A stretch of DNA of 64,000 nucleotides from Candidatus Buchananbacteria bacterium (GTDB lineage Bacteria > Patescibacteriota > Patescibacteriia > 2-01-FULL-39-33 > JBAYJR01), in contig JBAYJR010000003.1 in the NCBI GenBank assembly GCA_041665005.1, positions 17,102-81,101 of the forward strand, in the 5' to 3' direction. A program made the position numbers and the translations under genes. The notes beneath the pieces were generated by a model. It did not search any database and was not told the DNA's origin. It saw only the letters and a list, made by a program, of their open reading frames with translations. Shown here one piece after another: positions 3,397 through 23,513 of the stretch. Each line of letters opens with the position of its first letter. Positions within the stretch are counted from its first letter, which is position 1.

Positions 3397-5619
3397 ATGT
3401 CTGAAGTAAAAAAATTCTCGACCGAATTTTGTGGTCGTACTTTGACTATCGAAACTGGACGGATAGCCAAACAAACTAATGCCAGTTGCACGGTGCAATA
3501 TGGCGAAACCGTGGTGCTAGCGACGGTAGTAATGTCCAAAGATCAACGCGAAGGCATTGATTTTTTTCCGTTATCCGTAGAATATGAAGAACGGTTATAT
3601 GCGGCGGGTAAGATTAAAGGTTCGCGTTGGGTTAAACGGGAAGGTCGGCCGAGCGAAGAAGCAGTACTGTCTGGTCGGATGATCGATCGCGCGATTAGAC
3701 CATTATTTCCTCAAGGCGTCAGAAACGATGTCCAGATAGTTTTGACGGTATTATCTTATGACGCGGAAAATGATTCAAATATTGTGGCTTTAATTGCGGC
3801 TTCGGCGGCGTTAACTATTTCTGATATTCCTTGGGCCGGTCCTTTGGCGGGAGTCAAAGTCGGTCGCGTTGAAGGTAAATTAGTATTTAACCCCACCCCA
3901 GCCGAAAAAGAAAAATCTGATTTAGATTTAGTAGTGGCCGGTTTAAATGACAAAGTTTTAATGTTAGAAGCCGGGGCTAAGCAGATTCCTGAAGCCGAGA
4001 TGTATGAGGCGATTGCTAAAGCCATGGAGCCTATTACCGTGGTGCAGAAATTCTTGCAGGAAATACAGACGCAAATTGGCAAGGTTAAGTTACCAACGGA
4101 ATTTTTTGCCGCCAAGATTACCGCGGAGCAACAAGCCGAAACTGAAAAAATTCAACAGTTGGTGGCAACTTTTGCCGCCGCTAAAGTTGAGGCCGCCTTA
4201 TTTAGTAAATCTTTAGATTCCAAATCCTCACGCAAAGAGGCAATTGCTAAATTGGATGAAGAATTGGCTAAAGAATTAATTGCCCAAGGCTTGCCGGTTG
4301 AAAAAATTGAGTCAGCCCAAGGATATTTGTATGAATTAATCGAAGGTCAAGTGACAGAAAATATTTTAAAGCATGATCGACGGGTGGATGGTCGTTTATT
4401 AACTGACGTTCGAGTTTTGGTGGGTGAAGTTAGTATTTTACCACGGACTCACGGTTCCGCGATTTTTTCTCGTGGCGAAACCCAAGTGCTTTCTTTGGTT
4501 ACCTTAGGCTCTCCGGGAGATGAACAGCAACTGGAAGGTTTGGAAGAAAATGGTAAAAAACGCTACATGCATCATTATAATTTTCCTCCTTATTCTGTTG
4601 GTGAAATCGGCAGACTAGGTTCTCCGGGACGTCGCGAAATTGGTCACGGAGATTTAGCGGAACGCGCTTTAGTGCCGGTATTACCGACCAAAGAGCAGTT
4701 TCCTTATACTATACGGGTAGTTTCAGAAGTAATGGGTTCTAACGGTTCTTCTTCAATGGCCTCTACTTGTGGCTCAACTTTATCCTTAATGGATGCTGGG
4801 GTGCCAATTACTGCTCCCGTCGCGGGAGTGGCCATGGGTTTAGCTTCTGATGGCAAGGGTCAATTTAAAGTACTAACCGATTTACAAGATTTAGAAGATG
4901 GTACTGGTGGCATGGATTTTAAAATCACGGGTACTAGCCAGGGAATTACCGCGATACAATTAGATACCAAAACTGATGGCTTGCCACTAACTGTAGTAAA
5001 ACAAACTTTGGAGCAAGCCAAACCAGCGCGGCAACAAATTTTAGAGTTAATTACTAAAACTATTCCGACGCCAAGATTAGAAATGTCAAAATATGCGCCA
5101 CGGATTATTACTTTCAGTATTCCGATTGATAAAATTAGAGATGTAATTGGTCCAGGCGGCAAAATGATTAATGAAATTATTGATGAAACGGGAGTAACGA
5201 TTGATATTGAACAAGATGGTATGGTTTATATTACTTCGGCTAATGCTGAAGCGGCAGTTAAGGCGCAAGATTGGATAAAAAATATTACTCGCGAAGTAGT
5301 GGCCGGCGAAGTTTATCAAGGTACGATTACTCGGATGTTAGATTTTGGTGCCTTTGCAGAAATTTTACCTAAACAGGAAGGTTTGATTCATGTTTCAGAA
5401 TTAGCCTGGGGTCATGTCAATAGAGTAACCGATGTGGTGCAGATTGGCGATGTGGTGCCGGTCAAGGTGTTGCAAATTGACGATCAAGGACGCATTAATT
5501 TATCTCGTAAGGCTTTAATTCCTAAACCTGAAGGTTATATTGAAGAGCCACCAATGGAACGGCCCCGACGTTTTGATCGTAATAGCGGTTCGGGTGGTCA
5601 AAGACCTTTCCGCCGCTAA
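3397..5619 (+). CDS. pnp: Polyribonucleotide nucleotidyltransferase (PNPase)
   Basis: Two RNase PH-like domains plus KH and S1 domains. Canonical position after rpsO. Confidence 0.95.
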   Translation: MSEVKKFSTEFCGRTLTIETGRIAKQTNASCTVQYGETVVLATVVMSKDQREGIDFFPLSVEYEERLYAAGKIKGSRWVKREGRPSEEAVLSGRMIDRAIRPLFPQGVRNDVQIVLTVLSYDAENDSNIVALIAASAALTISDIPWAGPLAGVKVGRVEGKLVFNPTPAEKEKSDLDLVVAGLNDKVLMLEAGAKQIPEAEMYEAIAKAMEPITVVQKFLQEIQTQIGKVKLPTEFFAAKITAEQQAETEKIQQLVATFAAAKVEAALFSKSLDSKSSRKEAIAKLDEELAKELIAQGLPVEKIESAQGYLYELIEGQVTENILKHDRRVDGRLLTDVRVLVGEVSILPRTHGSAIFSRGETQVLSLVTLGSPGDEQQLEGLEENGKKRYMHHYNFPPYSVGEIGRLGSPGRREIGHGDLAERALVPVLPTKEQFPYTIRVVSEVMGSNGSSSMASTCGSTLSLMDAGVPITAPVAGVAMGLASDGKGQFKVLTDLQDLEDGTGGMDFKITGTSQGITAIQLDTKTDGLPLTVVKQTLEQAKPARQQILELITKTIPTPRLEMSKYAPRIITFSIPIDKIRDVIGPGGKMINEIIDETGVTIDIEQDGMVYITSANAEAAVKAQDWIKNITREVVAGEVYQGTITRMLDFGAFAEILPKQEGLIHVSELAWGHVNRVTDVVQIGDVVPVKVLQIDDQGRINLSRKALIPKPEGYIEEPPMERPRRFDRNSGSGGQRPFRR

Positions 5620-5694
5620 AGCATTTTTCTCGTTATTTTAAAAACCCATAATCAGAGCTGATTAAGCTTAGATTATGGGTTTTAGTTAAAGATT

Positions 5695-7083
5695 ATGTGG
5701 TCAAAAATCAAAGCATTAAAACTTAATTTAAGGCAAAGTATAATTTTGGTTGTAACTTTGTTAATTTTAGGTTTGCTGGGCGGTTGGGGATGGTATGATC
5801 AGAATTTTTTAGCGGATAATTTAGCCAGATATTTGCCAGAAAATCCGGTTTACTATGTGCATCTAAATTTAACGGTTAAACCAATTGATGAATTAAGTAA
5901 AAGTTTTTTAAATAGTCAGAGTAGTATTCTTAAAGAGATTTGGCCCGAGCCGGATTATTTATTAAGCCCAGAATTTTTAACTTTGGTTGATCGCGAGGTC
6001 GCATTGGCGGGTTTTTGGCAGACGACTGAGCAAACTAAGACTTGGCAAACAGTAGTAATTGTTAAAACTAAACAAGCCGGCGGTTTGGTTGATTTGGCTT
6101 TAAGTAAAGGTTTGGCGATTAAAAAATTGGCTAACAATATTTATTTGTTGGGTCAGTTAAAGCCAGAATTAAAAAAAGCAGTTTGGTCAAAAACTGATCT
6201 TTATCAGTTGTATCAAAGAAATTGTTTAAAGCGAGCAAATTTTTGTGCCTATTTAAGCGCTAACCAAATTGAATGGCCTAGTAATTTATCAGAGTTACTT
6301 AAAAATGCTAGTTTACTGAATAATTTAGCAGTGGATCAGCCTAGTTTTTTTAGTTGGCATAAAGAAGCTAAAAGAATTGTTTGGCAAATTGTTCCGGTGG
6401 TTAAACTTAAGCAGAGTTTTGCGCCTGTACTTTGGCGGTTGGCGCAAAATCTTCCCAAAAACGCTTTGGCAGTTGGTTATAACTTGCCGGTTGATCAATG
6501 GGTGAGTCAAGAATTAAATTTAGTAGGCTTAAGTTCGGAATTAAATCAAGAGATTATCAATACTTTAAGTGGTAGTAGTTTGTGGTGGCAGTTTTTAGTT
6601 AAGGATAAACCGGTTAATTTATTAGTTTTAGCCGTGCCAGAATTAAGCCAAGACCAGGTTAGCAATTTTTTGACTAGTTATCTGGCTCGGTTGTGGCCAA
6701 AAACTGAAACCCGAATTTTGCCGGACCGCAGTAGTTATCAGGAATTAATCGTTGATCAAACTACAATTAGCTTACAAAGTCAAAAAATTGCCAGGCAGGT
6801 GGTTTATAATACTTGGTTGCCTTCACAAAAGGCCTTAGTTTGGTGGCAAAAAGATGGTTTGCTGTTTTTGGCCGATTCTTTGGAGGCGGCTAACCAGTAT
6901 TTGTTGGTTGATCAAGAAAGGGTTGGTTGGAATTACGCTAAATTTTTGGCCGGTTTGGGTAATAATTTACCAGCTTGGTCAGTTTATTTAACTGGTGATT
7001 GGCTAGAAAAACTTAACTTAAAAGGCTTTAAGACGATGCTAATTAAGCAAGAAAATGCTAAGTTAACTGGTTTTTTGCAGTAG
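5695..7083 (+). CDS. Hypothetical membrane-anchored protein (N-terminal TM, large extracytoplasmic domain)
   Basis: ORF track. N-terminal hydrophobic helix. No recognisable motif. Confidence 0.5.
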   Translation: MWSKIKALKLNLRQSIILVVTLLILGLLGGWGWYDQNFLADNLARYLPENPVYYVHLNLTVKPIDELSKSFLNSQSSILKEIWPEPDYLLSPEFLTLVDREVALAGFWQTTEQTKTWQTVVIVKTKQAGGLVDLALSKGLAIKKLANNIYLLGQLKPELKKAVWSKTDLYQLYQRNCLKRANFCAYLSANQIEWPSNLSELLKNASLLNNLAVDQPSFFSWHKEAKRIVWQIVPVVKLKQSFAPVLWRLAQNLPKNALAVGYNLPVDQWVSQELNLVGLSSELNQEIINTLSGSSLWWQFLVKDKPVNLLVLAVPELSQDQVSNFLTSYLARLWPKTETRILPDRSSYQELIVDQTTISLQSQKIARQVVYNTWLPSQKALVWWQKDGLLFLADSLEAANQYLLVDQERVGWNYAKFLAGLGNNLPAWSVYLTGDWLEKLNLKGFKTMLIKQENAKLTGFLQ

Positions 7084-7095
7084 TTAATGTTTAGC

Positions 7096-7153
7096 TGTGG
7101 ATAATATGTGGATTAAATAGTATTTTTTTGATTCGTCTAGAGAGCTATCCACA
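7096..7153. promoter_or_regulatory. Cluster of three DnaA-box-like 9-mers, two inverted: TGTGGATAA (rc TTATCCACA), TGTGGATTA and CTATCCACA, with an AT-rich spacer
   Basis: Direct reading. One perfect match and two one-mismatch matches to the TTATCCACA consensus within 58 bp. Confidence 0.35.
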
Positions 7154-7526
7154 ATTGAGTTTTAGGGTTAAAAAGTTTATAGCTGAGGTTAGCAGAAAAT
7201 AATGATTGACCAAGAGCAAATAAAATGTTATAATTAATAATGTTAACTAATGCTTTAACTAAAAAAGAGTTGATAAGTGGCTAGACTCAACTCAAATAAA
7301 AACAAAATCAAAGGTAATTTTGATTGGTCGAAAGAAAAAACCAATTATTACTACCAATTATAAGGCATAGTTTGTCCCTTTCAGCTTTCTGCCACAAAGC
7401 GTCCAAAAACCTTAGCACTGTAAATCTTCACCTTCTAGCTAAAAGTTAGCTGGAAAATGAGGTAGAACTAAGGCCTTGGGCGTCTGTCGGACTAATAAAA
7501 AACTCATTGTGATATACAATAGATTA

Positions 7527-7553
7527 GCGCCGCACAGGCGCCCTTCTTTTTTT
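7527..7553 (+). terminator. Rho-independent terminator (GCGCC-gcaca-GGCGC then CCTTCTTTTTTT)
   Basis: GC hairpin followed by a T-run. Confidence 0.6.
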
Positions 7554-7577
7554 GTAGAAAAATCAATTTTAGTATTC

Positions 7578-7605
7578 TTGACATCTACCCCAGATGGTTT
7601 ATAAT
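7578..7605 (+). promoter_or_regulatory. Consensus sigma70-type promoter: TTGACA, 16 bp spacer, TATAAT
   Basis: Perfect -35 and -10 hexamers about 30 bp upstream of the DksA/TraR-like gene. Confidence 0.6.
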
Positions 7606-7633
7606 AGTAGCTATTAAGTTTAATTAATCTTTT

Positions 7634-8011
7634 ATGGATAAAATTTTTATTGATGAGATAAAAGAAAAGCTAATTCAAGAGCAGGAGCGGAGTCAAAGAG
7701 AATTAGCAAAATTTTCTAAAAAAAGTATAGAAAACGACGCTTCACGAGAAGTAATTTTTCCTGATTTTGGTGACAAGGAAGATGAAAATGCCGAAGAGGT
7801 GGCGACTTATACCACCAATCTTTCTTTAGAAAAGAAGTTAGAAGAAACCTTACGCGATGTGGCTGGAGCGCTAAAGCGAATCGCCGAAGGCAAATATGGT
7901 ATTTGCAAATTTTGTGGTCAAGAAATTGATAAGTCGCGATTGTTAGCTCGGCCGGTTTCCTCCAGCTGTGTTAGCTGTAAAAAAAGCTTAAAAGGAGAAA
8001 ATATTAAATAA
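7634..8011 (+). CDS. DksA/TraR-family C4 zinc-finger protein
   Basis: C-terminal 'CKFCGQEIDKSRLLARPVSSSCVSCKK' (C-x2-C-x17-C-x2-C) after a coiled-coil region. Confidence 0.7.
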   Translation: MDKIFIDEIKEKLIQEQERSQRELAKFSKKSIENDASREVIFPDFGDKEDENAEEVATYTTNLSLEKKLEETLRDVAGALKRIAEGKYGICKFCGQEIDKSRLLARPVSSSCVSCKKSLKGENIK

Positions 8012-8024
8012 AAATTGTTGTGTC

Positions 8025-8486
8025 ATGAAAAAGATAGTAGTGCTTAACTTGGTGGCTTTGTTTTTTTTCTTAGTTTGCCGTTTTATCGCCTATTATTTAT
8101 TATTAAACCCCGAGCTTGCCAGGGGTTTTATTTTTTTGCCGATTTTAACTTGGTCTTTAAAATTTAACACCAATTTAGCTTTTAGTTTGGCCTTACCAAA
8201 TTTTTTGATCATAATTTTAATGGGACTAGTGTTAATTTTTTTGGCCTGGTGGTGGTTTAATAGTTTAAAAAATTTAGTAGCTACCGAAAATTTTTATTTA
8301 GCGTTAATTATTGCCGGCGCCTTGAGTAATTTAAGTGATCGTTTAAACTGGGGCGGAGTGCTAGATTATTGGCAGTTTTTAAATTTATCAATTTTTAATT
8401 TAGCGGATGTTTTGATTGTGGTCGGAATTATCGGATTATTGCTAAAAAATTTATTAGTTAACGAAAACAAAACTTATGTCCGCTAA
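8025..8486 (+). CDS. lspA: Lipoprotein signal peptidase (signal peptidase II)
   Basis: 'GALSNLSDRL' and 'FNLADVLIVVG' LspA signatures. 4-TM topology. Confidence 0.8.
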   Translation: MKKIVVLNLVALFFFLVCRFIAYYLLLNPELARGFIFLPILTWSLKFNTNLAFSLALPNFLIIILMGLVLIFLAWWWFNSLKNLVATENFYLALIIAGALSNLSDRLNWGGVLDYWQFLNLSIFNLADVLIVVGIIGLLLKNLLVNENKTYVR

Positions 8487-9420
8487 GGTTTTTTCGGCCG
8501 CGGTAGTGGGCCTAGATTGTCAGTTAGTGGAAGTGGAGGCTGATGTTTCGCCTTTTAGTCAACCGGGAATTACCATTGTTGGTTTGCCCGATAAGGCGGT
8601 GGATGAAGCCAAAGAAAGAGTGCGTAGCGCCGTTAAAAATTCTAATTTGCAATTTCCTCGGGGCAAGGTGACGGTTAATTTGGCTCCGGCGGATTTAAAA
8701 AAAGAAGGGCCAATTTATGATTTGCCAATGGCCGTTAGTATTTTAATTACCGCCAAAGAATTACCGCAGATTGTCAATAAACAGCAATTATTTATTGGGG
8801 AATTAGCGCTAGACGGTTTATTGCGTCCGGTTTGTGGTGTTATTTCAATTGCGATTTTTTGTCGCGAACATGGGATAAAAGAATTGTTTTTGCCAGAAGC
8901 CAATGCGCCCGAAGCCACCTTAATTCCCGATTTAATTATTTATCCGGTCAAAAATTTAGGCCAATTAATTAATCATCTCAAAGGGCAGGAGTTAATTGAA
9001 GTGGCTAAAGCGTTGGTAATTGAGGCTGAGCAAGTTGTAGCGGTAGATTCGGCGTTTGATTTTGCTTTTATCCGTGGTCAGGAACAGGTTAAGCGTGCTT
9101 TAGAGATTGCCGCGGCGGGCGGGCATAATATTTTAATGTCCGGGCCCCCGGGCTCGGGTAAAACTTTGTTAGCCAAGGCTTTTCCGACTATTTTACCCAC
9201 CATGACTTTAAGAGAAAGCTTGGAAGTGACCAAAATTTATAGCGTGGCCGGGGTGTTGCCAATTGATAAGCCGTTAATTGTGCAACGTCCTTGGCGTAAT
9301 CCGCATCATACGGCTTCGGGAGCGGCTTTGGTCGGCGGTGGCGCTTGGCCGCGGCCGGGAGAAATTTCTTTAGCACATCGCGGCGTGTTATTTTTAACAA
9401 GAGTCCCGCAATCAGCATAA
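8476..9420 (+). pseudogene. comM: ComM/YifB Mg-chelatase-family ATPase, 5' fragment. It is interrupted after '...AHRGVLFL' by the inserted element and runs into the stop as 'TRVPQSA*'.
   Basis: N-terminal Lon-like domain plus Walker A 'MSGPPGSGKTLLAK'. The protein is about 300 aa short of family length, and the missing C-terminus is found at 22881-23513. Confidence 0.8.
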
Positions 9421-9585
9421 GCAATTCTTTACTCATAACGATCCCGATTCTCTCAGAAACCGAGAGAAGACGGGAGGTTTTGGCTACCAATCCAGGAATG
9501 CATCGCGGGCGTAGTTCTGTATGATTACGTACTATCTGAAGATATGGCGGCAATTTATGAAAAATAAAACGACATAGTACTACAT

Positions 9586-10152
9586 ATGAAAATGCTTCAG
9601 GAAAAAGAGGATTTCCTCAAAAATACAATCCGCAACGCCATTGCGGTTAATCCGCTTGTTTCAATTCGCAGGATGCAGGAGATTGTTGAGAGTAACACGG
9701 GCCGTTCAATCAGCGACAAGTACGTTTCTAAATTGATGCGTAAAATCAGACGCCAAGCGGTTATTCAATCGGATCGGAAACAGATGAACGAGCGACTCGC
9801 CGAGATTAGAGAACGATTCAGGGTACTCACTGACGATTTATTCAGAACAATTTACTGGAAACCGGACTTTATTAAACAGTATGGATTATCCTACCCATCC
9901 CAGAAAGAACGATTCGCGGCGATGAAACTACTCGCTCAACTGGACCTCGCGCTTTTTCATGCAGAACTGGACGCCGGAATGTTCGAAGATAGACAAAAAG
10001 CCATAGGAGATATACTCCAACAAGGAATGCTCCCAAATGAGCTGAGAGAGCAGGTTATAGGCGTATTCAGAACATGGAAAATGGCACCGATATACAAAGG
10101 GACTAAAGTATCTTCTAATTTATCAGTAATGCCACACACCGATGGCTCGTAA
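9586..10152 (+). CDS. Hypothetical protein (possible N-terminal HTH), element cargo
   Basis: ORF track. Island-type codon usage. Confidence 0.5.
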   Translation: MKMLQEKEDFLKNTIRNAIAVNPLVSIRRMQEIVESNTGRSISDKYVSKLMRKIRRQAVIQSDRKQMNERLAEIRERFRVLTDDLFRTIYWKPDFIKQYGLSYPSQKERFAAMKLLAQLDLALFHAELDAGMFEDRQKAIGDILQQGMLPNELREQVIGVFRTWKMAPIYKGTKVSSNLSVMPHTDGS

Positions 10153-10306
10153 AAACATACCAACAAGCGGATATGATGCAATAGAGATAAGAGCTATGAT
10201 CACATCATCCAAAATGGAATTTCCAAAGAAGTGGAATAGGATCAAAAATATTACAAGCGTGAATAGCTTGTTGAGTATGGATCCGAGCTCACTATGGAAT
10301 GATCGT

Positions 10307-11767
10307 TTACTCATCGTCGTCTAATTCGTTTTTATCAAGTATCGTCAAATGTGGTTTAGCCCAATCCTCTCCATAAGCATCGCGTGTAATTTCTAAATGA
10401 GAAGGATCAGCCGCTTGTTCAATCGAATCCAGATATTGGAAGAACTCACTCTTGGTATTTGGGCTGAAAACTTTTACAGGATACCGGGACATATCAGTTT
10501 TAATCGGTTCTTCTTGTAAAAGCGCGGCCATACCGTTATCGATGAAAATCGCATCACAATACGGCAATAAGTTTGCTATGGCATTAACATCTGTGAACGT
10601 CCCTTTATTGGGCGGTTCCTTTTGTCCACTGGATGCTTTTCTGGCGATACCGGCGTAAAGCAACGAAGAAATACGCACTGACGGAATCTCCGTAACATAT
10701 TTGGATGAAAGATACTCGATGGCTTTTTTGATGGCATCTTCACCATCAATTCCTCGGCCGCGCAATGTTCGAATAAGGGCTTGAATAAGCTCGCTGGAAG
10801 GAGGTGGAAAAATGTCATTCAGGTCGATGTCCGGCTCTTTTCCCTGAAGATACTGATCGGCATACTTTTGTGGCAGCGCAGCCTGCTTTTTGAGGAACTT
10901 TAAATGAGCTAAAACAGTGCCTTTCCCAAAAGCATAGGCTTCTTCATTAACCCATTCCATGAAATTGCGTCCTCTCTCCTGTTGCCATCGCTGAAATACA
11001 CTTTTCATAGCTTCGTATTGGCTATTCCTTTCCTTGTGGACCGCTTCAAGCTGCCCATCATAGGGGCGCATGTTTACACTAACTCGCATTCTTCCAAGCC
11101 ATTCATGGAGACGACCGTGCACGATGTTGTCGACTTTAAGCTCGAGCGGCTTATCCGGCACATCATTCAAATAATTTTCAAAATGCTCCTGCACTTGAAA
11201 ACGTAGGATTGTATGATGATCGTAAAAAGTACACCCACTGGAAAGTCTTTCATAGACCTTCTTTAGCGACTTATATGGTGGGTCACCAGATAAGAGTGAT
11301 TCATCCGTGTGAAATGTAGAGTCAGGACAAACCACAAGATTCAACATCAGCAACCGATCGAGTTTTTTATATGCTTCAAGCCAAAATGGTTGAGCAATAA
11401 CCTTCTCATGACTACGAGCTGTTTTATCGAGTGCCTTCGTCATATTGCTGATAAGAAATTGGTCAAGATAGATGATTTTCTTTTTGATTTCGGGTAGAGA
11501 AAAACCTTGCTGATGCCAGCAAGTAGTACATTCACGCGAATATCCATTCCCGCCGGTTCCCACAAATACACCAAATGTCTCCTTCCCGCATTTTGGGCAC
11601 GTCTTATATGGACCAGAAATAAAATCTGCACGGGTGATGTGCTTTACGCGTTCTTCAAGTTGAGCCCTACGTTCATCTTTGGCGAGGCAACATTTCTTGT
11701 ATTTTTTTCCACTGCCACAGGAACAAGGGTCATTTCTTCCAACTTTAGTCATAGGATTCCGATTCAA
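10307..11767 (-). CDS. SEC-C motif plus zinc-ribbon protein with a large uncharacterised C-terminal domain
   Basis: N-terminal 'NDPCSCGSGKKYKKCC' SEC-C metal-binding motif, then 'CPKCGKE...CTTC' ribbon. 486 aa, divergent to the R-M operon. Confidence 0.6.
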   Translation of the reverse strand: MNRNPMTKVGRNDPCSCGSGKKYKKCCLAKDERRAQLEERVKHITRADFISGPYKTCPKCGKETFGVFVGTGGNGYSRECTTCWHQQGFSLPEIKKKIIYLDQFLISNMTKALDKTARSHEKVIAQPFWLEAYKKLDRLLMLNLVVCPDSTFHTDESLLSGDPPYKSLKKVYERLSSGCTFYDHHTILRFQVQEHFENYLNDVPDKPLELKVDNIVHGRLHEWLGRMRVSVNMRPYDGQLEAVHKERNSQYEAMKSVFQRWQQERGRNFMEWVNEEAYAFGKGTVLAHLKFLKKQAALPQKYADQYLQGKEPDIDLNDIFPPPSSELIQALIRTLRGRGIDGEDAIKKAIEYLSSKYVTEIPSVRISSLLYAGIARKASSGQKEPPNKGTFTDVNAIANLLPYCDAIFIDNGMAALLQEEPIKTDMSRYPVKVFSPNTKSEFFQYLDSIEQAADPSHLEITRDAYGEDWAKPHLTILDKNELDDDE

Positions 11768-11843
11768 CTACACGATACTTTTATTGCGTAATTATATGTC
11801 CACAAATTTGCACTGTCAACAAAAGTAAAGTATAATAAATTCC

Positions 11844-12020
11844 ATGACATTGAAAGACGAATTTTATACGGCCGAAGAACTGGCGACAAAGCTGAAGCTT
11901 AACGTCATGACGATTTACCGGTATATTAAGGCCGGTAAATTAAAAGCGCTCAAAATTGGCAAAGAATACCGCATCAATCGAGCCGAATTTGCGAAGTTTC
12001 TTAATAAATCAAAACTATAA
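11844..12020 (+). CDS. Small HTH_17/MerR-like (excisionase-family) DNA-binding protein, 58 aa. Absent from the ORF track, which has a 60-aa cutoff.
   Basis: 'LKLNVMTIYRYIKAGKLKALKIGKEYRI' helix-turn-helix. ATG at 11844, TAA at 12018. TATAAT at about 11832. It is the first gene of a coupled operon. Confidence 0.55.
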   Translation: MTLKDEFYTAEELATKLKLNVMTIYRYIKAGKLKALKIGKEYRINRAEFAKFLNKSKL

Positions 12021-12023
12021 TTT

Positions 12024-12692
12024 ATGATCAAGCTTAAATTACTTCCACCAGAAGACATAAAAAATAAAGCGATATGGTTTCAGAAATTTCGGAACGAGTG
12101 CAAGGCATATCTTGCCAAGCACGGAATTGACTACGACAAATTTACCATAGTCGAACACGACGGTTACATTGGCTTCATCTCCGAATGGGTTCTCTCTCAG
12201 TACATACGTGACGAGTTTCACGATGCAATCAAGGAGTGTTCTCCATGGGAGGACAAATTCGATCTTAAGCGAATCGAAAGAATTATAGAAAAAAATTCCA
12301 TGGACGAGGGAGATGTAGCATACGTAAAAGAGTATTTCTACGACAGCTGGGATCTAATGGTTGCTACCAAAGAAGTCGCTTATAGATGTGACATAAAGAC
12401 GGCCCTAACCAAGAAAGAGCCACAACTAAACTGGAATTTTCTCTATCCCATAATTCAAGCAGAAAAATCGGGCAAAGACCTAATGATACTCATCTATTAC
12501 ATCTATGAGGGGGATGATTTTCACAATCTGACTGGTGAGGTATTGATAGGCGCAACAACATACGATGCGATAAAAAAGTGCCCCGTCTTGAAGAAAGGAG
12601 ATACCAGTAAATTCGGGACGAAAAGTCAAGCAGACAATTACGTAACTGAGCTGTCGCGTGACTACTCTGAATTAAGTAAATTCATTCACTGA
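12024..12692 (+). CDS. Hypothetical 222-aa protein, translationally coupled between the HTH gene and Type III mod
   Basis: 3-nt gaps to both neighbours. No recognisable motif. Confidence 0.55.
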   Translation: MIKLKLLPPEDIKNKAIWFQKFRNECKAYLAKHGIDYDKFTIVEHDGYIGFISEWVLSQYIRDEFHDAIKECSPWEDKFDLKRIERIIEKNSMDEGDVAYVKEYFYDSWDLMVATKEVAYRCDIKTALTKKEPQLNWNFLYPIIQAEKSGKDLMILIYYIYEGDDFHNLTGEVLIGATTYDAIKKCPVLKKGDTSKFGTKSQADNYVTELSRDYSELSKFIH

Positions 12693-12694
12693 AC

Positions 12695-14368
12695 ATGAAA
12701 AGGAAAATAAACTACGACAATTGGTCAAAAGAGGAGCTGATTAAAGAACTACGCCGCATTAAAGAAACTAAGTACGGCCTTGTTTGGCATCGCGATTTGC
12801 CGGAAGAAAAGATCGACATATTGATCAATCCCGATGCCCGCACGCCCAGCGAGATGTTCCCGAACGAAATGGCGGGCCGGCCATTCCCTGTCCTAAAAGA
12901 GGTTAAGAACCGCGCCATCGAATCCGACGGCTCGAAGCCGGTTAATCTACTCATCGAGGGCGACAACTACCACTCACTCGCCGTTCTGAACTTCACACAC
13001 CAAGAAGCAATTGATGTTATCTATATTGATCCACCATACAACACTGGGAATAACGATTTTATCTATAGGGATAAATTTGAAAGTGACTATGTGAAAAATG
13101 ATGATCCTTTTCGGCATAGTAAGTGGATCTCTTTTATGGAACGACGGCTGAAGTTAGCGAAAAATCTATTGTCAAAAAAGGGAGCAATTTTCATAAGCAT
13201 TGATGACAATGAGTATGGGCCATTAAAGCTATTGTGTGACGAGCTTTTGGGGGAAGTGAACTTCTTGGGAACTATAGTAAGAAGACGCAGAGGTTCGCAA
13301 GCGAATTTATCAAAGAACATTTCCACGATACATGAGTATGTTCTCTGTTACGCCAAAGGCAGAGAGACACAATTAAATCGACTGACGTTTGAAGCGAAAA
13401 TAGATGACTTCAAAAATCCAGACAAAGATTCACGGGGCCCTTATGTAACAATGCCCTGCACAAATAAAGGTGGTGCAAAATATACAATTACTACTCCTAC
13501 TGGCAAAAAACATACTGACGAATGGCGATTTAAGGAAGAAACATATCTGGAATTGTTAAAAGATAGCCGAATTGTTTTTCCCAAAAAAGGCGATGGCAAA
13601 CCTCGATACAAACTTTTCTTAAAAGAAAAGGAAGGGAGTGGCGTGATCGCCAGTACTTGGTGGGACGATGCCGCTACCAACCAAGAAGCGACGTCGGAGT
13701 TAAAGGCCTTGTTTGGAGGAGAGTTGGTATTCAACAACCCCAAACCCGTTGGTTTAATAAAGCGAATCATAGCATTGGCATCAGATAAAAATTCAACGAT
13801 TCTCGATTTCATGGCCGGATCAGGAACGACTGGACACGCTGTTATGGAACTCAACAAAGAAGATGGCGGCCAGCGGCAATTTATCCTCTGTACTAACAAC
13901 GAAAACAACATTTGTACCGATGTGTGTTATCCCAGAATCAAAAAGGTTATCGAGGGTTACAAAAACTTGAAGAAAGAAAAAGTGGATGGATTGGGAGGCA
14001 ACCTGAGATACTACACTTGCGACTTTGTCGAAGCTAAGCCGACCGATCTCTGTAAACGCAAGCTCGTAAATGAATGCACCGAGATGCTCTGCATCCATGA
14101 AAATACCTTCGAGCTGGTACAAGATGATAAGGACTTCAAAATCTTCAGAAACGGCGACCGATACCTTGGTATTGTATTCTACGAAGACGCAATTGATGAC
14201 TTCAAAAAAGCGATCGTGAAAATTAAAGGTCACTGCAATGCATACATTTTCTCGATGACCGACGATCCAAACAAGAGTCAGTTTGCCGATGTCGCCAGCA
14301 AGGTGACACTGTGTGCCATACCTGAAGTGATCCTGAAGGTTTATCGGGAAATCTTCAAAGAGCAATAA
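12695..14368 (+). CDS. mod: Type III restriction-modification DNA methyltransferase (Mod, N6-adenine, beta class)
   Basis: 'IYIDPPYNTGN' (motif IV DPPY) precedes 'DFMAGSGTTGHAV' (motif I). Size and order are typical of Type III Mod. Confidence 0.9.
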   Translation: MKRKINYDNWSKEELIKELRRIKETKYGLVWHRDLPEEKIDILINPDARTPSEMFPNEMAGRPFPVLKEVKNRAIESDGSKPVNLLIEGDNYHSLAVLNFTHQEAIDVIYIDPPYNTGNNDFIYRDKFESDYVKNDDPFRHSKWISFMERRLKLAKNLLSKKGAIFISIDDNEYGPLKLLCDELLGEVNFLGTIVRRRRGSQANLSKNISTIHEYVLCYAKGRETQLNRLTFEAKIDDFKNPDKDSRGPYVTMPCTNKGGAKYTITTPTGKKHTDEWRFKEETYLELLKDSRIVFPKKGDGKPRYKLFLKEKEGSGVIASTWWDDAATNQEATSELKALFGGELVFNNPKPVGLIKRIIALASDKNSTILDFMAGSGTTGHAVMELNKEDGGQRQFILCTNNENNICTDVCYPRIKKVIEGYKNLKKEKVDGLGGNLRYYTCDFVEAKPTDLCKRKLVNECTEMLCIHENTFELVQDDKDFKIFRNGDRYLGIVFYEDAIDDFKKAIVKIKGHCNAYIFSMTDDPNKSQFADVASKVTLCAIPEVILKVYREIFKEQ

Positions 14369-14369
14369 T

Positions 14370-16607
14370 ATGACAAACGTCGAACTCAAAAATTATCAAG
14401 AAAAAGCAGTTGCGGATATCCGCGACAAAGGAAACCGGCTGTTCGAAAAGGACGGCAGCCGCATTTTGGTATTCAAGGCCCCGACTGGCTCGGGCAAAAC
14501 GCTCATGATGGCTGAATGGATGATGCGACTATGTGATCCATTCTCACGCACCGATGGCAAGAAGTTCTCCTTCATTTGGATCGCAGTCAATAAACTCCAC
14601 GACCAAAGCCATAACAACCTGAAGAAGTTCTATGCGAAAGAAGGGCTTGGTCTCCGGTGCTCATATTTTGAGGATTTGGAGGAGAGGCAGATCAAGCAGA
14701 ACGAAATTCTATTTCTCAACTGGGCAAGTATTAACAAGGAAGGAAACATATACATTCGCGCCAACGAACGTGATAACAACATTTCGAACGTCATTGAGCG
14801 GACAAAAGAAGCTGGCCGCACGGTCGTGCTCATCATCGATGAAAGCCATCACACTGCCAAAAGTGACAATTCACGTGAACTTATTGATGGCATCGGCCCG
14901 AAGCTCACTGTCGAAGTGTCAGCTACGCCTCAGCTCACCAATTTCGTAGACGAAATCGTGACCGTCGAGCTTGCTGACGTAAAAGACGAAGGCATGATCA
15001 AACGAGAGATAACCATCAATCCGGGCTTCGAAAGCTACAAGTTCGACAAGAAAATCAAAGACAAGGCAGCCGATGAGATCGTGATCGAAGCGGCGCTCAA
15101 GGCGCGCGCTGGACTCGTGAAAGCGCTCGCCGCAGAGGGATCGAGCGTCAACCCGCTCCTTCTCATCCAGCTACCGGATGCTCGCAAGGGACTGATCGAT
15201 AAAAAAGACATCGTGATTCAAATCCTCGCAAAATACGGCATCACAACAAAGAATGGCAAACTCGCGATCTACCTTTCGGAAAAAGACAATAAGATCAATC
15301 TTGAAAACATCGAAAAGAACGAGAACGAAGTGGAAGTGATGATCTTCAAACAAGCGATTGCGCTTGGCTGGGATTGCCCACGTGCTTCAATTCTCGTTCT
15401 CTTCCGCGAATGGAAAAGCATGGTGTTCTCCATTCAAACGGTGGGCCGGATTATGCGTATGCCGGAGCACCGCCACTACAAGGACCCGGCACTGAACATC
15501 GGGTATGTCTACACCAGCTTGAGCGACATCACCATCGCTGAGGACATCGCCAAGGAATACGTGACGGTCTACTACGGACGCCGTCGCGACGATTATAAAA
15601 ACATTGATTTCGCCTCCTATCACTCGAAACGCTTCCGCGAGGAAACGCGTTTGTCGGCCGACTTTGTGCCGATCTTCTTCACTGCCGCAGACGAACAGAA
15701 ACTTAAAACCAAAATCTCGCTCAAGCACAGCATCGTAGATACAAAGCTTATAGCGAGTGGCCGGATCACAGATGTGGACAAGGAAGCTAAGAGTATCGAG
15801 AAAAAAGGAACGCTGGATATACCAAAAACAGAAACCGAACTGCAGGCCGCGTTCGACAATTTCGCACGTGAGAATCTTGCGCCATTCGCGCCGGAGCTCC
15901 GATCGCTCAAACGAATCAATGACTCAATCTACAGATTCTTCGATAAGGCGTTCAAGATGGGACTCGATGACTGGCCAAAAATTCAAGCCATCGTGCTTGC
16001 AGAAGAAAACCGACAGGCCCTCGTTGACGTCATCAATCGCGCAAAAGAGCTGTATCAAGAAGCGGTCGGCAAGGGTAAGCATGAGGTAGTGCAAAACGAT
16101 GAGCCGTGGAACGTGCCGGAGGAAATTCGCTACAACATCACATTCACAAAAAAAGACTATAAAAAATCCGTCATCCAACCCTACTACGCAAAAACACAAG
16201 GCGACAGCTCGATAACGGACTTTGAGGAAGATAGCGCGGTCGAGGTTTCATTTATCGACACACTCGAGAAGGCAAAAAAGGTGAAGTGGTGGTTTAAGAA
16301 TGGCAGTAAGGATGGATCGTATTTCGCCGTGCCTTATACCGAGAATGGAATGCAAAAAGCATTCTACGTAGACTTCATTGTCATGCTGACTGACGGATCA
16401 ATTGGCCTTTTCGATACCAAGGGCGGCATCTACGCGCAAACCGCAAAGGATCGTGCCGAGGGACTTGCCGCATACCTCGCCAAAAGCAAGAAGCTTTTCG
16501 GCGGCATTGTCGTCAAAGATAAAAACAGCTGGCGTTATAACGACAATAATAAATACAACTATGATCAGAACAATCTCAAGGATTGGAAGTTCTTGGACAT
16601 AAGCTAA
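14370..16607 (+). CDS. res: Type III restriction enzyme Res subunit (SF2 helicase plus nuclease)
   Basis: Walker A 'KAPTGSGKT' and motif II 'IIDESHH'. Start is 2 nt after the mod stop. Confidence 0.9.
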   Translation: MTNVELKNYQEKAVADIRDKGNRLFEKDGSRILVFKAPTGSGKTLMMAEWMMRLCDPFSRTDGKKFSFIWIAVNKLHDQSHNNLKKFYAKEGLGLRCSYFEDLEERQIKQNEILFLNWASINKEGNIYIRANERDNNISNVIERTKEAGRTVVLIIDESHHTAKSDNSRELIDGIGPKLTVEVSATPQLTNFVDEIVTVELADVKDEGMIKREITINPGFESYKFDKKIKDKAADEIVIEAALKARAGLVKALAAEGSSVNPLLLIQLPDARKGLIDKKDIVIQILAKYGITTKNGKLAIYLSEKDNKINLENIEKNENEVEVMIFKQAIALGWDCPRASILVLFREWKSMVFSIQTVGRIMRMPEHRHYKDPALNIGYVYTSLSDITIAEDIAKEYVTVYYGRRRDDYKNIDFASYHSKRFREETRLSADFVPIFFTAADEQKLKTKISLKHSIVDTKLIASGRITDVDKEAKSIEKKGTLDIPKTETELQAAFDNFARENLAPFAPELRSLKRINDSIYRFFDKAFKMGLDDWPKIQAIVLAEENRQALVDVINRAKELYQEAVGKGKHEVVQNDEPWNVPEEIRYNITFTKKDYKKSVIQPYYAKTQGDSSITDFEEDSAVEVSFIDTLEKAKKVKWWFKNGSKDGSYFAVPYTENGMQKAFYVDFIVMLTDGSIGLFDTKGGIYAQTAKDRAEGLAAYLAKSKKLFGGIVVKDKNSWRYNDNNKYNYDQNNLKDWKFLDIS

Positions 16608-16985
16608 GCACCAGAATCGCGTTAGACAAAAAAATTGGAGCCCCCAGAGGAGTTGTGGCAAGATTCGGAGATTGATAGGGACTTCTGGCTAAAAGCGCAA
16701 CCCTGAGAGCCACAGCAAGAACCATGAGCAATTAAGTAGATTTATTCATATGAATACGGCATAATAGAAATCGACAATTGAATATCAAAGGACCTAACCC
16801 TTTCGGATTAACCCGGGAGGTATGGTCGAAAATCGCATGACTGCAAAGATCCCATCATCAGGATCGCAGTCATGCGTTATGCGGGGAAACTCGCATATGA
16901 GCCGCAAGGCTCTACCTGGTGGTGGGTTTTTTGCAAAAAAGACCCGGTCAAACACCAGGTTAAGTAATTAACTTAACCAACGACT

Positions 16986-20658: not shown

Positions 20659-21162
20659 ATGAACAAAGCAACAATTACAAAGAAGAGGGCGGCGATCTAT
20701 CTTCGGACCGCCAACGATGATCAACAAGGGTCTGGAATCGCAGAGCAAGAAGTACAGTTGAGGGCTTTTGTAGCCTCGAACGACTACTTGGTCGATAAAA
20801 AGCACGTATACAAAGACAGTGGCGTTTCCGGACTACTTCCATTGGAAAAAAGGTCAGGGGCAAAAAAATTATTTGAAGGCGCGGAGAGGCATGAGTTTGA
20901 CTTGATAATCGTCAAAGGAGTCGACAGAATCTCCCGAGGCTATCACCATTTTTTTGAAATGTTAGACAAATTCTCACGCCTCAAAGTAGGCATCAAGGCT
21001 GTAGATGGGTCGATTGATACGCTAACTACTTCCGGTAAAGCAAGGGCTGGACTTCTGACAACAATGATGACGGCGATGGCGAGGTTCGAAAATGATGCCC
21101 TGCGAGAAAGATTAATGCGCGGAAAGCTTGCCGCCAAAGAAAGACGACCAATGAATAAATAA
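20659..21162 (+). CDS. Truncated serine-recombinase catalytic-domain paralog with the nucleophile replaced (RTANDDQ instead of RVSTDEQ). No DNA-binding domains.
   Basis: About 40% identical to the N-terminus of the downstream recombinase. The leader sequence AAAATTAACCAATAAA is duplicated upstream of both genes. Confidence 0.7.
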   Translation: MNKATITKKRAAIYLRTANDDQQGSGIAEQEVQLRAFVASNDYLVDKKHVYKDSGVSGLLPLEKRSGAKKLFEGAERHEFDLIIVKGVDRISRGYHHFFEMLDKFSRLKVGIKAVDGSIDTLTTSGKARAGLLTTMMTAMARFENDALRERLMRGKLAAKERRPMNK

Positions 21163-21184
21163 TTAAAATTAACCAATAAACACC

Positions 21185-22909
21185 ATGGAAACAATAATAA
21201 GCACGAAGAAAATAAGAGCGGCGATCTACATGCGAGTTTCCACAGACGAACAGCTGAAGGGGCATGGAATGGCGGTTCAAGAAGAAAAATTAAGATACTT
21301 CGTAAAAGCCAACGATTACATACTCGAAGAAAAGCACGTCTACAAAGACGAAGGGTTTTCGGGATCACTGCCGGTTGAGCATCGGCCGGACATACAGAGA
21401 CTGATGGAAAATGGAAAGAAATCAGAATTTGATGTAGTTCTGGTTTGGAAGCTTGATAGAATGTTTCGGAGTGCGCGTCTGATGCTCAACATGGTCGAGG
21501 ACTTATCGAAATATAAAGTCGGGGTAAAATCTGCAACCGAGCCATTCGATACGACAACCATTTTCGGGAAAGGAATGGTCGGCTTCCTCGCAGTCATGGC
21601 AGAGATGGAAAGGGACACTATCAGGGAAAGGACCACGGGTGGAAGAATCAGGGCCGCGCAAAGTGGTAAGTGGGTAACAGGAGTCCCCCCTTACGGATAT
21701 AATCTCATAAAAGAAACCGGACAACTTGAGATAAATAAAGAGGAGGCGAAATGGGTGAAGATGTACTTTAAGTGGATTGTTGCGGATCGATTGCCTCTGC
21801 GTGAGATTCAGAGAAGGGCTAATAATATGAAAATACCGATTGCTCGCAGAAAGGTCTCAAACAAAAAGACTCATAACTACTGGCATACTCGAACGATTGG
21901 CAGAATGTTGACCAATGAAACCTATACTGGAACAGCATTCTTCAGAAAGTACAAAAGACCATTCAAAAACCTGACCAGCGTTACCGACGAAAGCCTTCTC
22001 AGGGAAAAAGCCGGATGGATAAGCATTAAAGTCCCGGCAATCATTACCAGGGAGTTATACGATACCTGCATAAAACAACTCCTCAAAAATCGTGAGTTTT
22101 CCAAACGGAACCTAAAGCGAACATATCTTTTTTCAAAGCTTATTTATTGTGGATCATGCGGATTCAAGCTCTTTGGAGGATATCAGCCACCAAGGAAAGA
22201 CGGGCGTGCGGGTACCAAGTACTATCATGGTTGGTGTACCAAAGCTGAGGTCGGGATCAGCAGAAGATGCCTAACGTGTGAGCAGGTATCAGAGATGCGC
22301 CTTCTTCCGATATGGGAACGACTGAAAGAAATCCTGAAGAAGCCGGAATTAACACTGGAAAAACTCGCAAGGTACAACACTGAGAAGATTAAACAGGACG
22401 ATACAGAAGAAAAGCTGGACCAGATCAAAAAGACCTTTGAGACGCTGGCCACCAAACGGCAAAGGCTCGGAATGTTATTCTCAGAAGGTGAATTTGACCA
22501 TGACAGCTACAAGAAGGCTCTGATAGAATGTAAAAGCCAAGAAGAACAACTCCGACAGGAACAACTAAGGCTCGAGCGTCAGCTACTCACAAAGAAAGAG
22601 ATCCGGGAGATAGCGAACGTCATCGATGGGCAGTATAAGAAGCTCATAGCACGACTGGACTCGCTGACATACGAAGAAAAACAAGAAGCAATCAGGCTGG
22701 TAGTAAACAGAGTAACGGTATATCCTAAGAGGGCTGAGGCCGAAGTAGAGTTCAACTTCAATCCAAATATTCAAACACCATCGCCTCTTATTGGGGCAAT
22801 CCGGGAGCCTGTCTATGCTCAATTGCAGGACAATAACGCTAAGACCGGTCTCACAACCATAACGGGGGTAGGGGTAAATAGTGGGTTGCGGGGCGTTAGC
22901 CTTGGATGA
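21185..22909 (+). CDS. Large serine recombinase (integrase)
   Basis: 'AAIYMRVSTDEQ' catalytic motif, recombinase domain, Cys-rich zinc ribbon 'CGSCGFKL...CLTCE', coiled-coil. The 3' end reads across the right junction. Confidence 0.9.
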   Translation: METIISTKKIRAAIYMRVSTDEQLKGHGMAVQEEKLRYFVKANDYILEEKHVYKDEGFSGSLPVEHRPDIQRLMENGKKSEFDVVLVWKLDRMFRSARLMLNMVEDLSKYKVGVKSATEPFDTTTIFGKGMVGFLAVMAEMERDTIRERTTGGRIRAAQSGKWVTGVPPYGYNLIKETGQLEINKEEAKWVKMYFKWIVADRLPLREIQRRANNMKIPIARRKVSNKKTHNYWHTRTIGRMLTNETYTGTAFFRKYKRPFKNLTSVTDESLLREKAGWISIKVPAIITRELYDTCIKQLLKNREFSKRNLKRTYLFSKLIYCGSCGFKLFGGYQPPRKDGRAGTKYYHGWCTKAEVGISRRCLTCEQVSEMRLLPIWERLKEILKKPELTLEKLARYNTEKIKQDDTEEKLDQIKKTFETLATKRQRLGMLFSEGEFDHDSYKKALIECKSQEEQLRQEQLRLERQLLTKKEIREIANVIDGQYKKLIARLDSLTYEEKQEAIRLVVNRVTVYPKRAEAEVEFNFNPNIQTPSPLIGAIREPVYAQLQDNNAKTGLTTITGVGVNSGLRGVSLG

Positions 22910-23513
22910 ATTGCCAGAATTTCCTCGTCAGGTTTTAGAAAATTTACGTCAGCCTTTAGAGGATGGTATTATCTCGGTGTCGCGAGTGCAGGGAACCTTG
23001 CAGTTTCCGGCTAAATTTATTTTAGTCGCGGCAATGAATCCTTGTCCTTGCGGTTATGCCACGGATCCAGACCGGCAATGTATTTGCGGCGCCAGTCAGA
23101 TTATTAAATATCAGAAAAAGATTTCGGGACCACTACTTGATCGAATCGATTTGCATGTGGAAGTGCCCAAAGTTAAGTTTGAAAAATTGGCTGACGATAG
23201 TTTGGCCGAAGATTCGGTTGCTATTCGTCAGCGCATTCAACAGGCGAGAACTCAGCAATTAACCCGGTTTAAGGGGTTAAATTTAGTAACTAATTCAGAA
23301 ATGTCTCAGCAGCAAATTAAAGAATTTTGTCAGATAGATGTGGCAACTCAGCAGCTATTAAAAACTGCCGTGGAACAACTACAACTTTCAGCTAGAGCTT
23401 ATTTTAGAATTTTAAAATTGGCGCGCACTATTGCGGATTTGGCCTCCAGTGTTAAAGTAGAATTAGCCCATGTGGCTGAGGCCCTACAGTATCGGCCTAA
23501 AATTTCGGAATAA
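22881..23513 (+). pseudogene. comM: ComM/YifB 3' fragment (C-terminal AAA lid / Mg-chelatase C domain) downstream of the insertion. Begins '(V)GCGALALDELPEF'.
   Basis: 'DELPEF...RQVLENLRQPLEDG...NPCPCGY' is the conserved continuation of ComM after 'GVLFL'. There is an in-frame stop just upstream. Confidence 0.8.

Follow-up and report, generated by a model that had tools for sequence, protein, structure and literature searches.

What does a 222-amino-acid (aa) protein of a so far undescribed kind do inside an operon of the Type III class of restriction-modification (R-M) systems, and with which of its neighbours does it work? The question is raised by a locus of a Candidatus Buchananbacteria bacterium (assembly GCA_041665005.1, contig JBAYJR010000003.1, forward-strand positions 17,102 to 81,101); this stretch of 64,000 nucleotides (nt) was analysed as a whole and is called the window below. 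According to the open reading frame (ORF) list of the window, four plus-strand ORFs of 58, 222, 557 and 745 aa lie one after the other at positions 11844-16607, and the stop-to-start gaps between them amount to 3, 2 and 1 nt, stop codons counted in. They encode a helix-turn-helix (HTH) protein of the HTH_17 family, the 222-aa protein, which is referred to as X, a Type III modification methyltransferase (Mod) and a Type III-like restriction subunit (Res). The locus thus departs from the two-gene mod-res composition of Type III R-M systems, as it consists of four cistrons with the HTH gene and X as extra members. A preliminary description, made from the DNA sequence without database searches, had proposed the four-gene operon with its narrow gaps, had named the HTH_17, Mod and Res proteins and had called the layout non-standard for Type III systems; ORF coordinates and domain matches bear out all of these points. 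Inspection of the sequence at each of the four starts revealed no GGAGG-type Shine-Dalgarno sequence, which fits translational coupling of the four cistrons, a plausible arrangement here. The reading favoured in this work, to which a probability of roughly one half is assigned, is that X would be an active accessory endonuclease acting through Mod, while the HTH protein would time the expression of the operon; it is drawn from sequence, predicted structure and genomic context.

X itself has escaped all family models. It has no match in Pfam, NCBIfam, PADLOC or PHROGs; a Pfam scan of 33 relatives yielded only sub-threshold matches, for instance to pPIWI_RE_REase (E 0.035) in four members, and comparison of the X profile with the PDB sequences gave nothing significant, the top match being an antitoxin helix (E 0.044). 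Relatives of X are scarce: a collection of 5.8 billion proteins yielded 12 of them, and one of 1.84 billion representatives contained 69 clusters. In their alignment, D46, W75, D123, W137 and N205 are invariant, and E54, D107, D110, K125 and Q145 are nearly so. AlphaFold2 (AF2) produced a confident model of X with a predicted local distance difference test score (pLDDT) of 90.8 and a predicted template modelling score of 0.86. In this model, E54 is located on the first core helix (residues 46-65), D110 before or at the start of the strand formed by residues 111-115, and D123-x-K125 on the strand formed by residues 119-129, which corresponds to the canonical PD-(D/E)xK arrangement. Both the alpha-beta-beta-beta-alpha-beta core fold and the placement of the catalytic residues are those of the PD-(D/E)xK superfamily, and the E54/D107/D110/D123-x-K125 set is intact in 31 of the 33 full-length relatives. 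Foldseek searches of the PDB retrieved HincII, SwaI, EcoRV and the archaeal Hjc with probabilities of 0.96-0.99 and E-values from 2.5e-3 upward, the template modelling (TM) scores to the Type II enzymes being low (about 0.3). Matches in BFVD were closer and comprised uncharacterised phage models annotated as restriction endonucleases, with E-values down to 4e-8 and TM-scores up to 0.68. On the predicted structure, X is a member of the PD-(D/E)xK, or restriction-endonuclease, fold and represents a new, rare family; conserved residues and model together suggest that it is a catalytically active nuclease. The absence of any recognisable motif, which the preliminary description had stated for the 222-aa ORF, did not stand up to the AF2 model and the Foldseek matches, which reveal a PD-(D/E)xK core.

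Several relatives of X deviate from this pattern. P0012 and P0038 form a clade of two variants, both of which carry the exchanges E54T, D107S/N, D110H and Q145K. The gene for P0012 (L009, positions 4483-5142) is found on a phage-like contig with a T4-type RNA ligase and members of several PHROG families, and without mod or res. X proteins of the P0012/P0038 type may be catalytically dead phage copies that serve as decoys. Scans of viral contigs with the X profile and with P0012 revealed no relative, and tblastn of X against plasmids and phages gave no match. Two representative proteins contain the X domain in a fusion: P0021 carries a C-terminal S24 (LexA-like) peptidase domain and a Cys-rich tail, and P0056 an N-terminal RNase H1-type hybrid-binding domain. 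N-terminal extensions of about 70 aa are present on X in P0023 and P0040.

To describe the context of X, 38 loci were fetched, which are labelled L001-L038. In 28 of the 29 loci with readable flanks, X lies within a Type III mod/res operon, and no housekeeping homology was found; the earlier suggestion that the 222-aa protein is an accessory component linked to R-M has thereby been strengthened. The X-bearing systems comprise about 17 distinct ones, show seven different architectures and span phyla of the candidate phyla radiation (CPR), including a lineage that uses genetic code 25, as well as Bacteroidota and Acholeplasma. A protein identical to the X of the window is on record from a metagenome-assembled genome of Candidatus Buchananbacteria. 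The position of X relative to mod and res differs between systems (Table 1), and in many of these architectures its start and stop codons overlap those of the adjoining genes. Between architectures, X proteins are 43-57% identical and their Res proteins only 24-33%, which indicates that X moves among unrelated Type III systems. It also seems to be facultative, since Res homologues that are 81-90% identical to the Res of the window occur without X: those of L034 and L036 belong to simple mod-res operons, and that of L031 is the product of an orphan res; in one database, more than 7600 relatives of Res are faced by 12 relatives of X. A replacement of a lost Res nuclease by X could be ruled out because every partner Res has kept its own PD...(D/E)xK motif. 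The idea that X arose as a duplicate of the Res nuclease was also rejected, as hhalign of X with the C-terminal nuclease domains of Res shows no relation.

Table 1. Positions of the features discussed here (numbering of the window) and gene orders in which X occurs, with the corresponding loci.
Feature or gene order	Position in the window, or loci	Strand	Basis or remark
Sigma-70-like promoter TTTGCA-18 nt-TATAAT	11807-11836	+	10/12 consensus matches
Conserved upstream block, candidate operator	11814-11839	+	tandem AAAGT-AAAGT overlapping the -10 hexamer
HTH_17 (excisionase/MerR-like) protein, 58 aa	11844-12020	+	Pfam HTH_17, E 1e-14
X, 222-aa stand-alone PD-(D/E)xK (restriction-endonuclease-fold) protein, predicted	12024-12692	+	AF2, Foldseek, motif conservation
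Type III Mod, beta-class N6-adenine-type methyltransferase	12695-14368	+	DPPY at aa 112, FMAGSG at aa 372
Mod target-recognition domain, aa 194-325	13274-13669	+	between motif VIII and motif X
Type III-like Res, superfamily 2 (SF2) helicase with C-terminal PD-(D/E)xK nuclease	14370-16607	+	
LOOT RNA motif (Rfam RF03000)	16791-16913	+	87.3 bits, gathering score 46.4, E 8.8e-16
Terminator-like hairpin (16911-16926) with T-run	16911-16935	+	300 nt downstream of res; consensus match only
486-aa SEC-C-motif gene	10307-11767		divergent from the operon
Promoter of the SEC-C-motif gene, TTGACA-17-TATAAT	11819-11791	-	perfect sigma-70 consensus
comM (Mg-chelatase-like), two parts	8476-9420; 22881-23513		
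Resolvase fragment	20659-21162		right end of the island
Large serine recombinase	21185-22909		right end of the island
[HTH]-X-Mod-Res (745 aa)	window, L008, L010/L011, L019		
X-HTH_17-Mod	L030		
Mod-X-Res (866-876 aa)	L013-L015, L017, L022		
Mod-X-Res (920 aa)	L016, L020		Siphonobacter
SNF2-DUF4391-Mod-Mod-X-Res (1032 aa)	L001-L003, L023, L027/L028		
SNF2-DUF4391-X-Mod-Res (1007 aa)	L004-L007, L025		
Mod-Res (651 aa)-X	L018		Acholeplasma
Mod-X	L026		contig of 20% GC, TGA read as glycine

If X is not bound to a particular Res, its partner could be sought in Mod, and here the comparison of the X-bearing systems yields the strongest lead. The target-recognition domain of Mod, located where beta-class methyltransferases have it, is 57-77% identical to that of the window in 12 of 16 distinct X-bearing systems, whereas in the same systems identity is down to about 40% in the Mod frameworks, the methyltransferase parts N- and C-terminal to it. 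Over eight full-length X-bearing systems, the recognition domains have a mean identity of 67%, compared with 53% for the N-terminal part of Mod, 46% for its C-terminal part and 50% for X. The two X-less relatives show the opposite: their Mod frameworks are about 80% identical to that of the window and their recognition domains only 32-41%. Usually, Type III Mod proteins have conserved termini and a variable central third, with 29-38% identity between specificity groups (PMC1976455); the X-bearing Mods invert this pattern, as their centre is better conserved than their ends. At loci with two Mods, the shared recognition domain is present in one of the pair (in L001b, in L027b and, for L023, in the first Mod), and a search seeded with the recognition domain led to L038, which again has the order Mod-X-Res. 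A database search with the same domain retrieved only fragments (10 proteins), with known full-length Mods escaping it, and is no measure of the prevalence of the domain. The linkage points to a partnership of X and Mod and, as a strong lead from sequence comparison, to one in which X is connected to Mod specificity via a single recognition domain in most systems; X is therefore proposed to work through the specificity of Mod. The search seeded with the recognition domain also led to L037, which lies on a long-read contig rich in frameshifts and in which at least five paralogues of a Type III mod are arrayed (3650-14573) downstream of genes for SNF2 and DUF4391; two of these paralogues have the shared recognition domain, and the fetched region ends inside the array.

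The other two enzymes of the operon are recognisable members of their families. Mod matches N6_N4_Mtase (E 2.9e-40) and the PADLOC model MTase_III (E 2e-96) and, among solved structures, the Type III Mod 6k0w (E 2.8e-64) and the EcoP15I Mod 4zcf (E 4.5e-41). Its motif order, DPPY followed by the recognition domain and FxGxG, is that of a Type III beta-class Mod. Res matches ResIII (E 8.9e-21) and the PADLOC model REase_III (about E 1e-19); it contains the helicase motifs TGSGKT (Walker A, aa 39), DESHH (aa 157), SAT (aa 184) and QTVGR (aa 356) and the nuclease motif YVDF (aa 666) and DTKG (aa 682). These motif residues are invariant in 22 homologues, as expected for a Type III Res. A direct match of the Res sequence to solved structures, that of EcoP15I Res included, was not found, and the AF2 model of Res (pLDDT 53.6) was too poor and was left unused for structural comparison.

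The operon therefore shares several properties with the classical Type III systems EcoP15I, EcoPI and HinfIII: the beta-class Mod is related to that of EcoP15I, mod precedes res in one operon, and Res has a C-terminal PD-(D/E)xK nuclease in addition to its SF2 helicase. It differs from them by its two extra cistrons, HTH and X, and by a short Res of a divergent subfamily. Type III enzymes as a class are further defined by ATP-dependent cleavage, for which two unmethylated sites in inverse orientation are required, and by hemimethylation of an asymmetric site. A small endonuclease encoded in a methyltransferase operon is also known from Vsr-Dcm, where the action of Vsr is tied to the target sequence of the methylase; Vsr repairs T:G mismatches that arise from the deamination of 5-methylcytosine. 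In contrast, the DPPY motif of the window Mod indicates an N6-adenine type, and X has no similarity to Vsr. Extra genes have been described for Type III systems before: Eco86II and BspHIV possess a third, helicase-like ATPase encoded 5' of mod, whose role is unknown (Murray et al. 2021, PMC8259958). As in these systems, the extra gene is conserved and tightly linked to mod and res, and the X-bearing operons of L001 and L004 even contain an SNF2 helicase gene and a DUF4391 gene upstream. However, no nuclease motif is present in the third protein of Eco86II and BspHIV, a large ATPase (PMC8259958), whereas X is small, has a predicted nuclease fold and lacks an ATPase, and the window contains no extra helicase. 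The literature that was searched contains no description of a Type III system whose third component is a small protein with a nuclease fold. The cassette of the window can be regarded, as far as sequence allows, as a Type III R-M system that comprises an HTH_17 controller resembling C proteins and an accessory nuclease of a new family, and no family model covers X.

The favoured mechanism starts with the HTH protein, which would be made from a leaderless message, the -10 hexamer of the promoter ending 7 nt before the ATG. It would most likely feed back on the element AAAGTAAAGTAT over the -10 hexamer, thereby acting as a timer of the downstream genes in the manner of the controller (C) proteins of R-M systems. 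Mod, guided by its central recognition domain, would methylate the corresponding site in the DNA of the host, and Res would be a complete helicase-nuclease. X would be an active, stand-alone PD-(D/E)xK endonuclease and a facultative third component, which is independent of the type of Res and tied to Mod, in most cases to one recognition domain. It may either dock on this recognition domain, or recognise the same DNA site and be blocked by methylation through Mod; either way, the Type III system would gain from X a second activity that cleaves DNA.

A number of observations weigh against this mechanism. Four X-bearing systems have other recognition domains, namely L016/L020 (40%), L017, L018 and L030 (34%), which weakens every model based on specificity; the X of L030 is 76% identical to that of the window, and the Mod next to it is a different one. 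The control set of X-less relatives consists of two operons only. The nuclease of Res is already complete, and there is no obvious need for a second one. X (positions 8001-8669) has been pseudogenised in L027/L028, where an in-frame TAG replaces the TGG of the invariant W137 in two independent long contigs, and mod and res are intact. Furthermore, the sites of Type III Mods are as a rule asymmetric and methylated on one strand (PMC12707154); after replication, this hemimethylation would leave daughter duplexes unprotected, which argues against a fully independent site-specific cutter. On the side of regulation, HTH_17 is outside the classical fold family of C proteins: the window protein has no match to the PADLOC Control_protein models and does not have the Xre/HTH_3-type fold. 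A clear palindromic C-box was not found near the promoter either, only a weak inverted repeat (78% over 18 nt) with its partner at 11769-11786.

According to a more specific version of the mechanism, X would represent a new class of effectors linked to Type III systems, whose action depends on one particular recognition domain of Mod; X would be either a Type II-like cutter protected by Mod or a guard docked on Mod, and phages would counter it with dead copies such as P0012/P0038. This version is tentative, its odds being clearly below even. Its two branches can also be considered as explanations on their own.

The guard branch is modelled on PrrC, an accessory anticodon nuclease in the Type Ic R-M locus ecoprrI, which is sporadic yet conserved and depends on its R-M partner (PMC12707154). 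By analogy, X would be a latent nuclease that is silenced on the recognition domain of Mod; a phage anti-restriction factor would free it, and X would degrade nucleic acid, thereby aborting the infection. Indeed, X is embedded in R-M operons, facultative, sporadic and strongly conserved across distant phyla, which is the pattern of distribution described for prrC within ecoprrI (PMC12707154). A tie to the recognition surface of Mod would fit silencing by Mod, tight control by an HTH protein would fit a toxic product, and the variant on the phage-like contig that has lost E54, D107 and D110 (P0012; the changes are common to P0038) could be a dominant-negative counter-measure. However, PrrC combines an ABC-ATPase with a HEPN RNase and is found in Type I loci, whereas X is a PD-(D/E)xK protein of Type III loci that shares no sequence similarity with PrrC, RloC or HEPN proteins and has neither an ATPase nor a sensor domain. 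A guard function of X is considered unlikely.

The second branch would make X a site-specific endonuclease of the Type II kind, with the Type III Mod as the protecting methylase; the operon would be a hybrid of two nucleases and one methylase, and HTH-X-Mod would follow the logic of C-R-M operons. X resembles EcoRV, HincII and SwaI, its best fold matches in the PDB, in size and fold, and the HTH gene, or the C-protein homologue in L010, is located directly upstream of X as in C-R operons (PMC2632904). A fixed specificity of the nuclease would also select for a conserved recognition domain on unrelated Mod frameworks, and the independence of X from the type of Res would fit. This explanation encounters several difficulties, which render it distinctly unlikely. 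Methylation of one strand of asymmetric sites would leave one daughter duplex unprotected; the sequence of X does not co-vary with the class of recognition domain, as illustrated by L030, whose X has 76% identity and a different Mod, and by L016, whose X is closest to that of L005. In addition, the matches to the Type II enzymes remain at E-values of about 1e-3 and the low TM-scores given above, without sequence similarity, and a Type III Mod as the partner of such an enzyme would be unprecedented.

The role of the HTH protein can be judged from its promoter and from its relatives. The spacing between the -10 hexamer and the ATG is kept in L008, and its shortness implies a leaderless transcript. 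The block 'AAAAGTAAAGTAT.ATAA' is identical in the window and in L008 and has the same distance to the ATG, whereas the flanking DNA does not align; the candidate operator overlaps the -10 hexamer, and a 12-mer of the block has one exact copy in the window. The HTH_17 proteins of the window, L008 and L030 are 62-66% identical with an invariant recognition helix, and the orthologues either head an X-bearing operon (L008) or are located inside one, between X and mod (L030). In L010/L011, the slot of the HTH gene is occupied by a gene for an Xre-type protein, which in L010 matches the PADLOC Control_protein model (E 4.8e-15), and Xre-like HTH genes head the operons of L013, L004, L016/L020 and L018. 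C-regulated R-M systems are characterised by leaderless C genes located directly upstream of a nuclease gene (PMC2632904). The layout in the window agrees with this, as the HTH gene is located 3 nt from X and its transcript is predicted to be leaderless. Like C.PvuII and C.AhdI, the HTH protein is encoded by a small gene directly upstream of, and by prediction co-transcribed with, a nuclease gene, and it has a conserved site beside its promoter (PMC2632904); unlike them, it is an HTH_17 and not an Xre protein, its candidate operator is a tandem direct repeat instead of a pair of palindromic C-boxes, and its host system is of Type III.

The preliminary description had left it undecided whether the HTH protein is a controller of the R-M genes or the excisionase, i.e., the recombination directionality factor, of the surrounding island. 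The domain itself speaks for the latter, as the protein matches the excisionase family TIGR01764 above the cutoff (48.5 versus 28.8 bits) as well as excisionase families of PHROG. So does the location of the cassette on an integrative island, and the related cassettes of L008 and L011 likewise have serine recombinases at their flanks. However, the recombinase genes (20659-22909) are 9 kb away and the HTH gene heads the R-M operon; it lies between X and mod in L030, is replaced by the homologue of Control_protein in L010/L011, and the promoter block upstream of it is conserved together with the R-M cassette. A function as island excisionase in place of an R-M regulator is therefore highly doubtful. 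Since the HTH gene is co-inherited with the R-M cassette and distant from a recombinase that is a serine and not a tyrosine enzyme, a role as operon controller is favoured on these genomic grounds, and of the two earlier proposals it is the controller that has gained support.

Two other assignments of the HTH protein were considered and rejected. Membership in MADS is not supported, as the score for the NCBIfam model MAD1 is 26.8 bits at a cutoff of 80, and the PADLOC mad1 match (E 4.7e-13) reflects a generic HTH; X, Mod and Res gave no match to the PADLOC models mad2-8. A toxin-antitoxin pair of HTH and X was ruled out because the HTH gene is not beside X in most architectures. The promoter region of the operon is shared with a neighbour: a perfect consensus sigma-70 promoter on the minus strand is directed towards the divergent SEC-C-motif gene and overlaps the plus-strand promoter region of the R-M operon (Table 1).

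The weakest explanation regards X as a homing-type endonuclease gene, free-standing and selfish, which would invade the mod/res operons of Type III systems and have no part in defence. It would account for the variable insertion position, the patchy distribution, a conservation much higher than that of the host genes and the tolerated pseudogenisation, and PD-(D/E)xK homing enzymes exist (I-Ssp6803I is a weak one among the fold matches of X). It is very improbable, as neither the collection of viral contigs nor the phage and plasmid records yielded a sequence relative of X, the start and stop codons of X overlap those of its neighbours in many architectures, and the recognition domain exceeds in conservation the stretch of mod between this domain and X, which co-conversion cannot account for.

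The split of comM, an Mg-chelatase-like gene, into two parts and the resolvase fragment and large serine recombinase at the right end indicate that the four-gene operon is cargo of an integrative island of about 13.5 kb. Further genes of this island encode the SEC-C protein, a membrane protein with an SNase domain, an HTH_36 protein and the large serine recombinase. In comM, the GVLFL(D/T) codons appear to contain the point of crossover; no clear att core emerged when the junctions were aligned. A LOOT RNA motif was detected in the 378-nt gap between res and the gene for the SNase-domain protein and is followed by the terminator-like hairpin.

Some of the other loci contain additional genes of potential relevance to defence. 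A gene for an ABC/AAA_13-type ATPase of about 570 aa directly follows res in two X-bearing operons (L010, 6398-8104, and L004, 13534-15273); the ATPases match PDC-S06 of PADLOC and show weak matches to AbiLi and AriA, and they may constitute a further accessory layer. In the Candidatus Dojkabacteria operon of L017, a DUF6530 gene (4900-5325, E 1.8e-38) is located between X and res. The short code-25 contig of L026 (7161 nt, 20% GC) contains, after Mod-X, the start of a further mod copy, and McrB-like and McrC-like genes on the opposite strand. L031-L033 encode a Res with 90% identity to that of the window, without mod; the orphan res is directly followed by a large serine recombinase gene and adjoins AbiEi-like and Schlafen-helicase-like genes.

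Type III R-M systems are regarded as textbook two-gene machines, and a conserved, horizontally shuffled third nuclease that is tied to the recognition module would depart from this view. Given such a nuclease, some Type III systems would possess an unrecognised second mode of cleavage or a built-in guard comparable to PrrC in Type I loci, and either possibility would change the annotation of such loci, in which X is at present listed as hypothetical everywhere. The cassette of the window provides a defined four-gene unit from CPR bacteria, whose defence biology is almost unexplored. Moreover, the inverted conservation of Mod, higher in the recognition domain than in the catalytic framework around it, offers a simple genomic signature by which other accessory genes locked to the specificity of a methyltransferase may be found.

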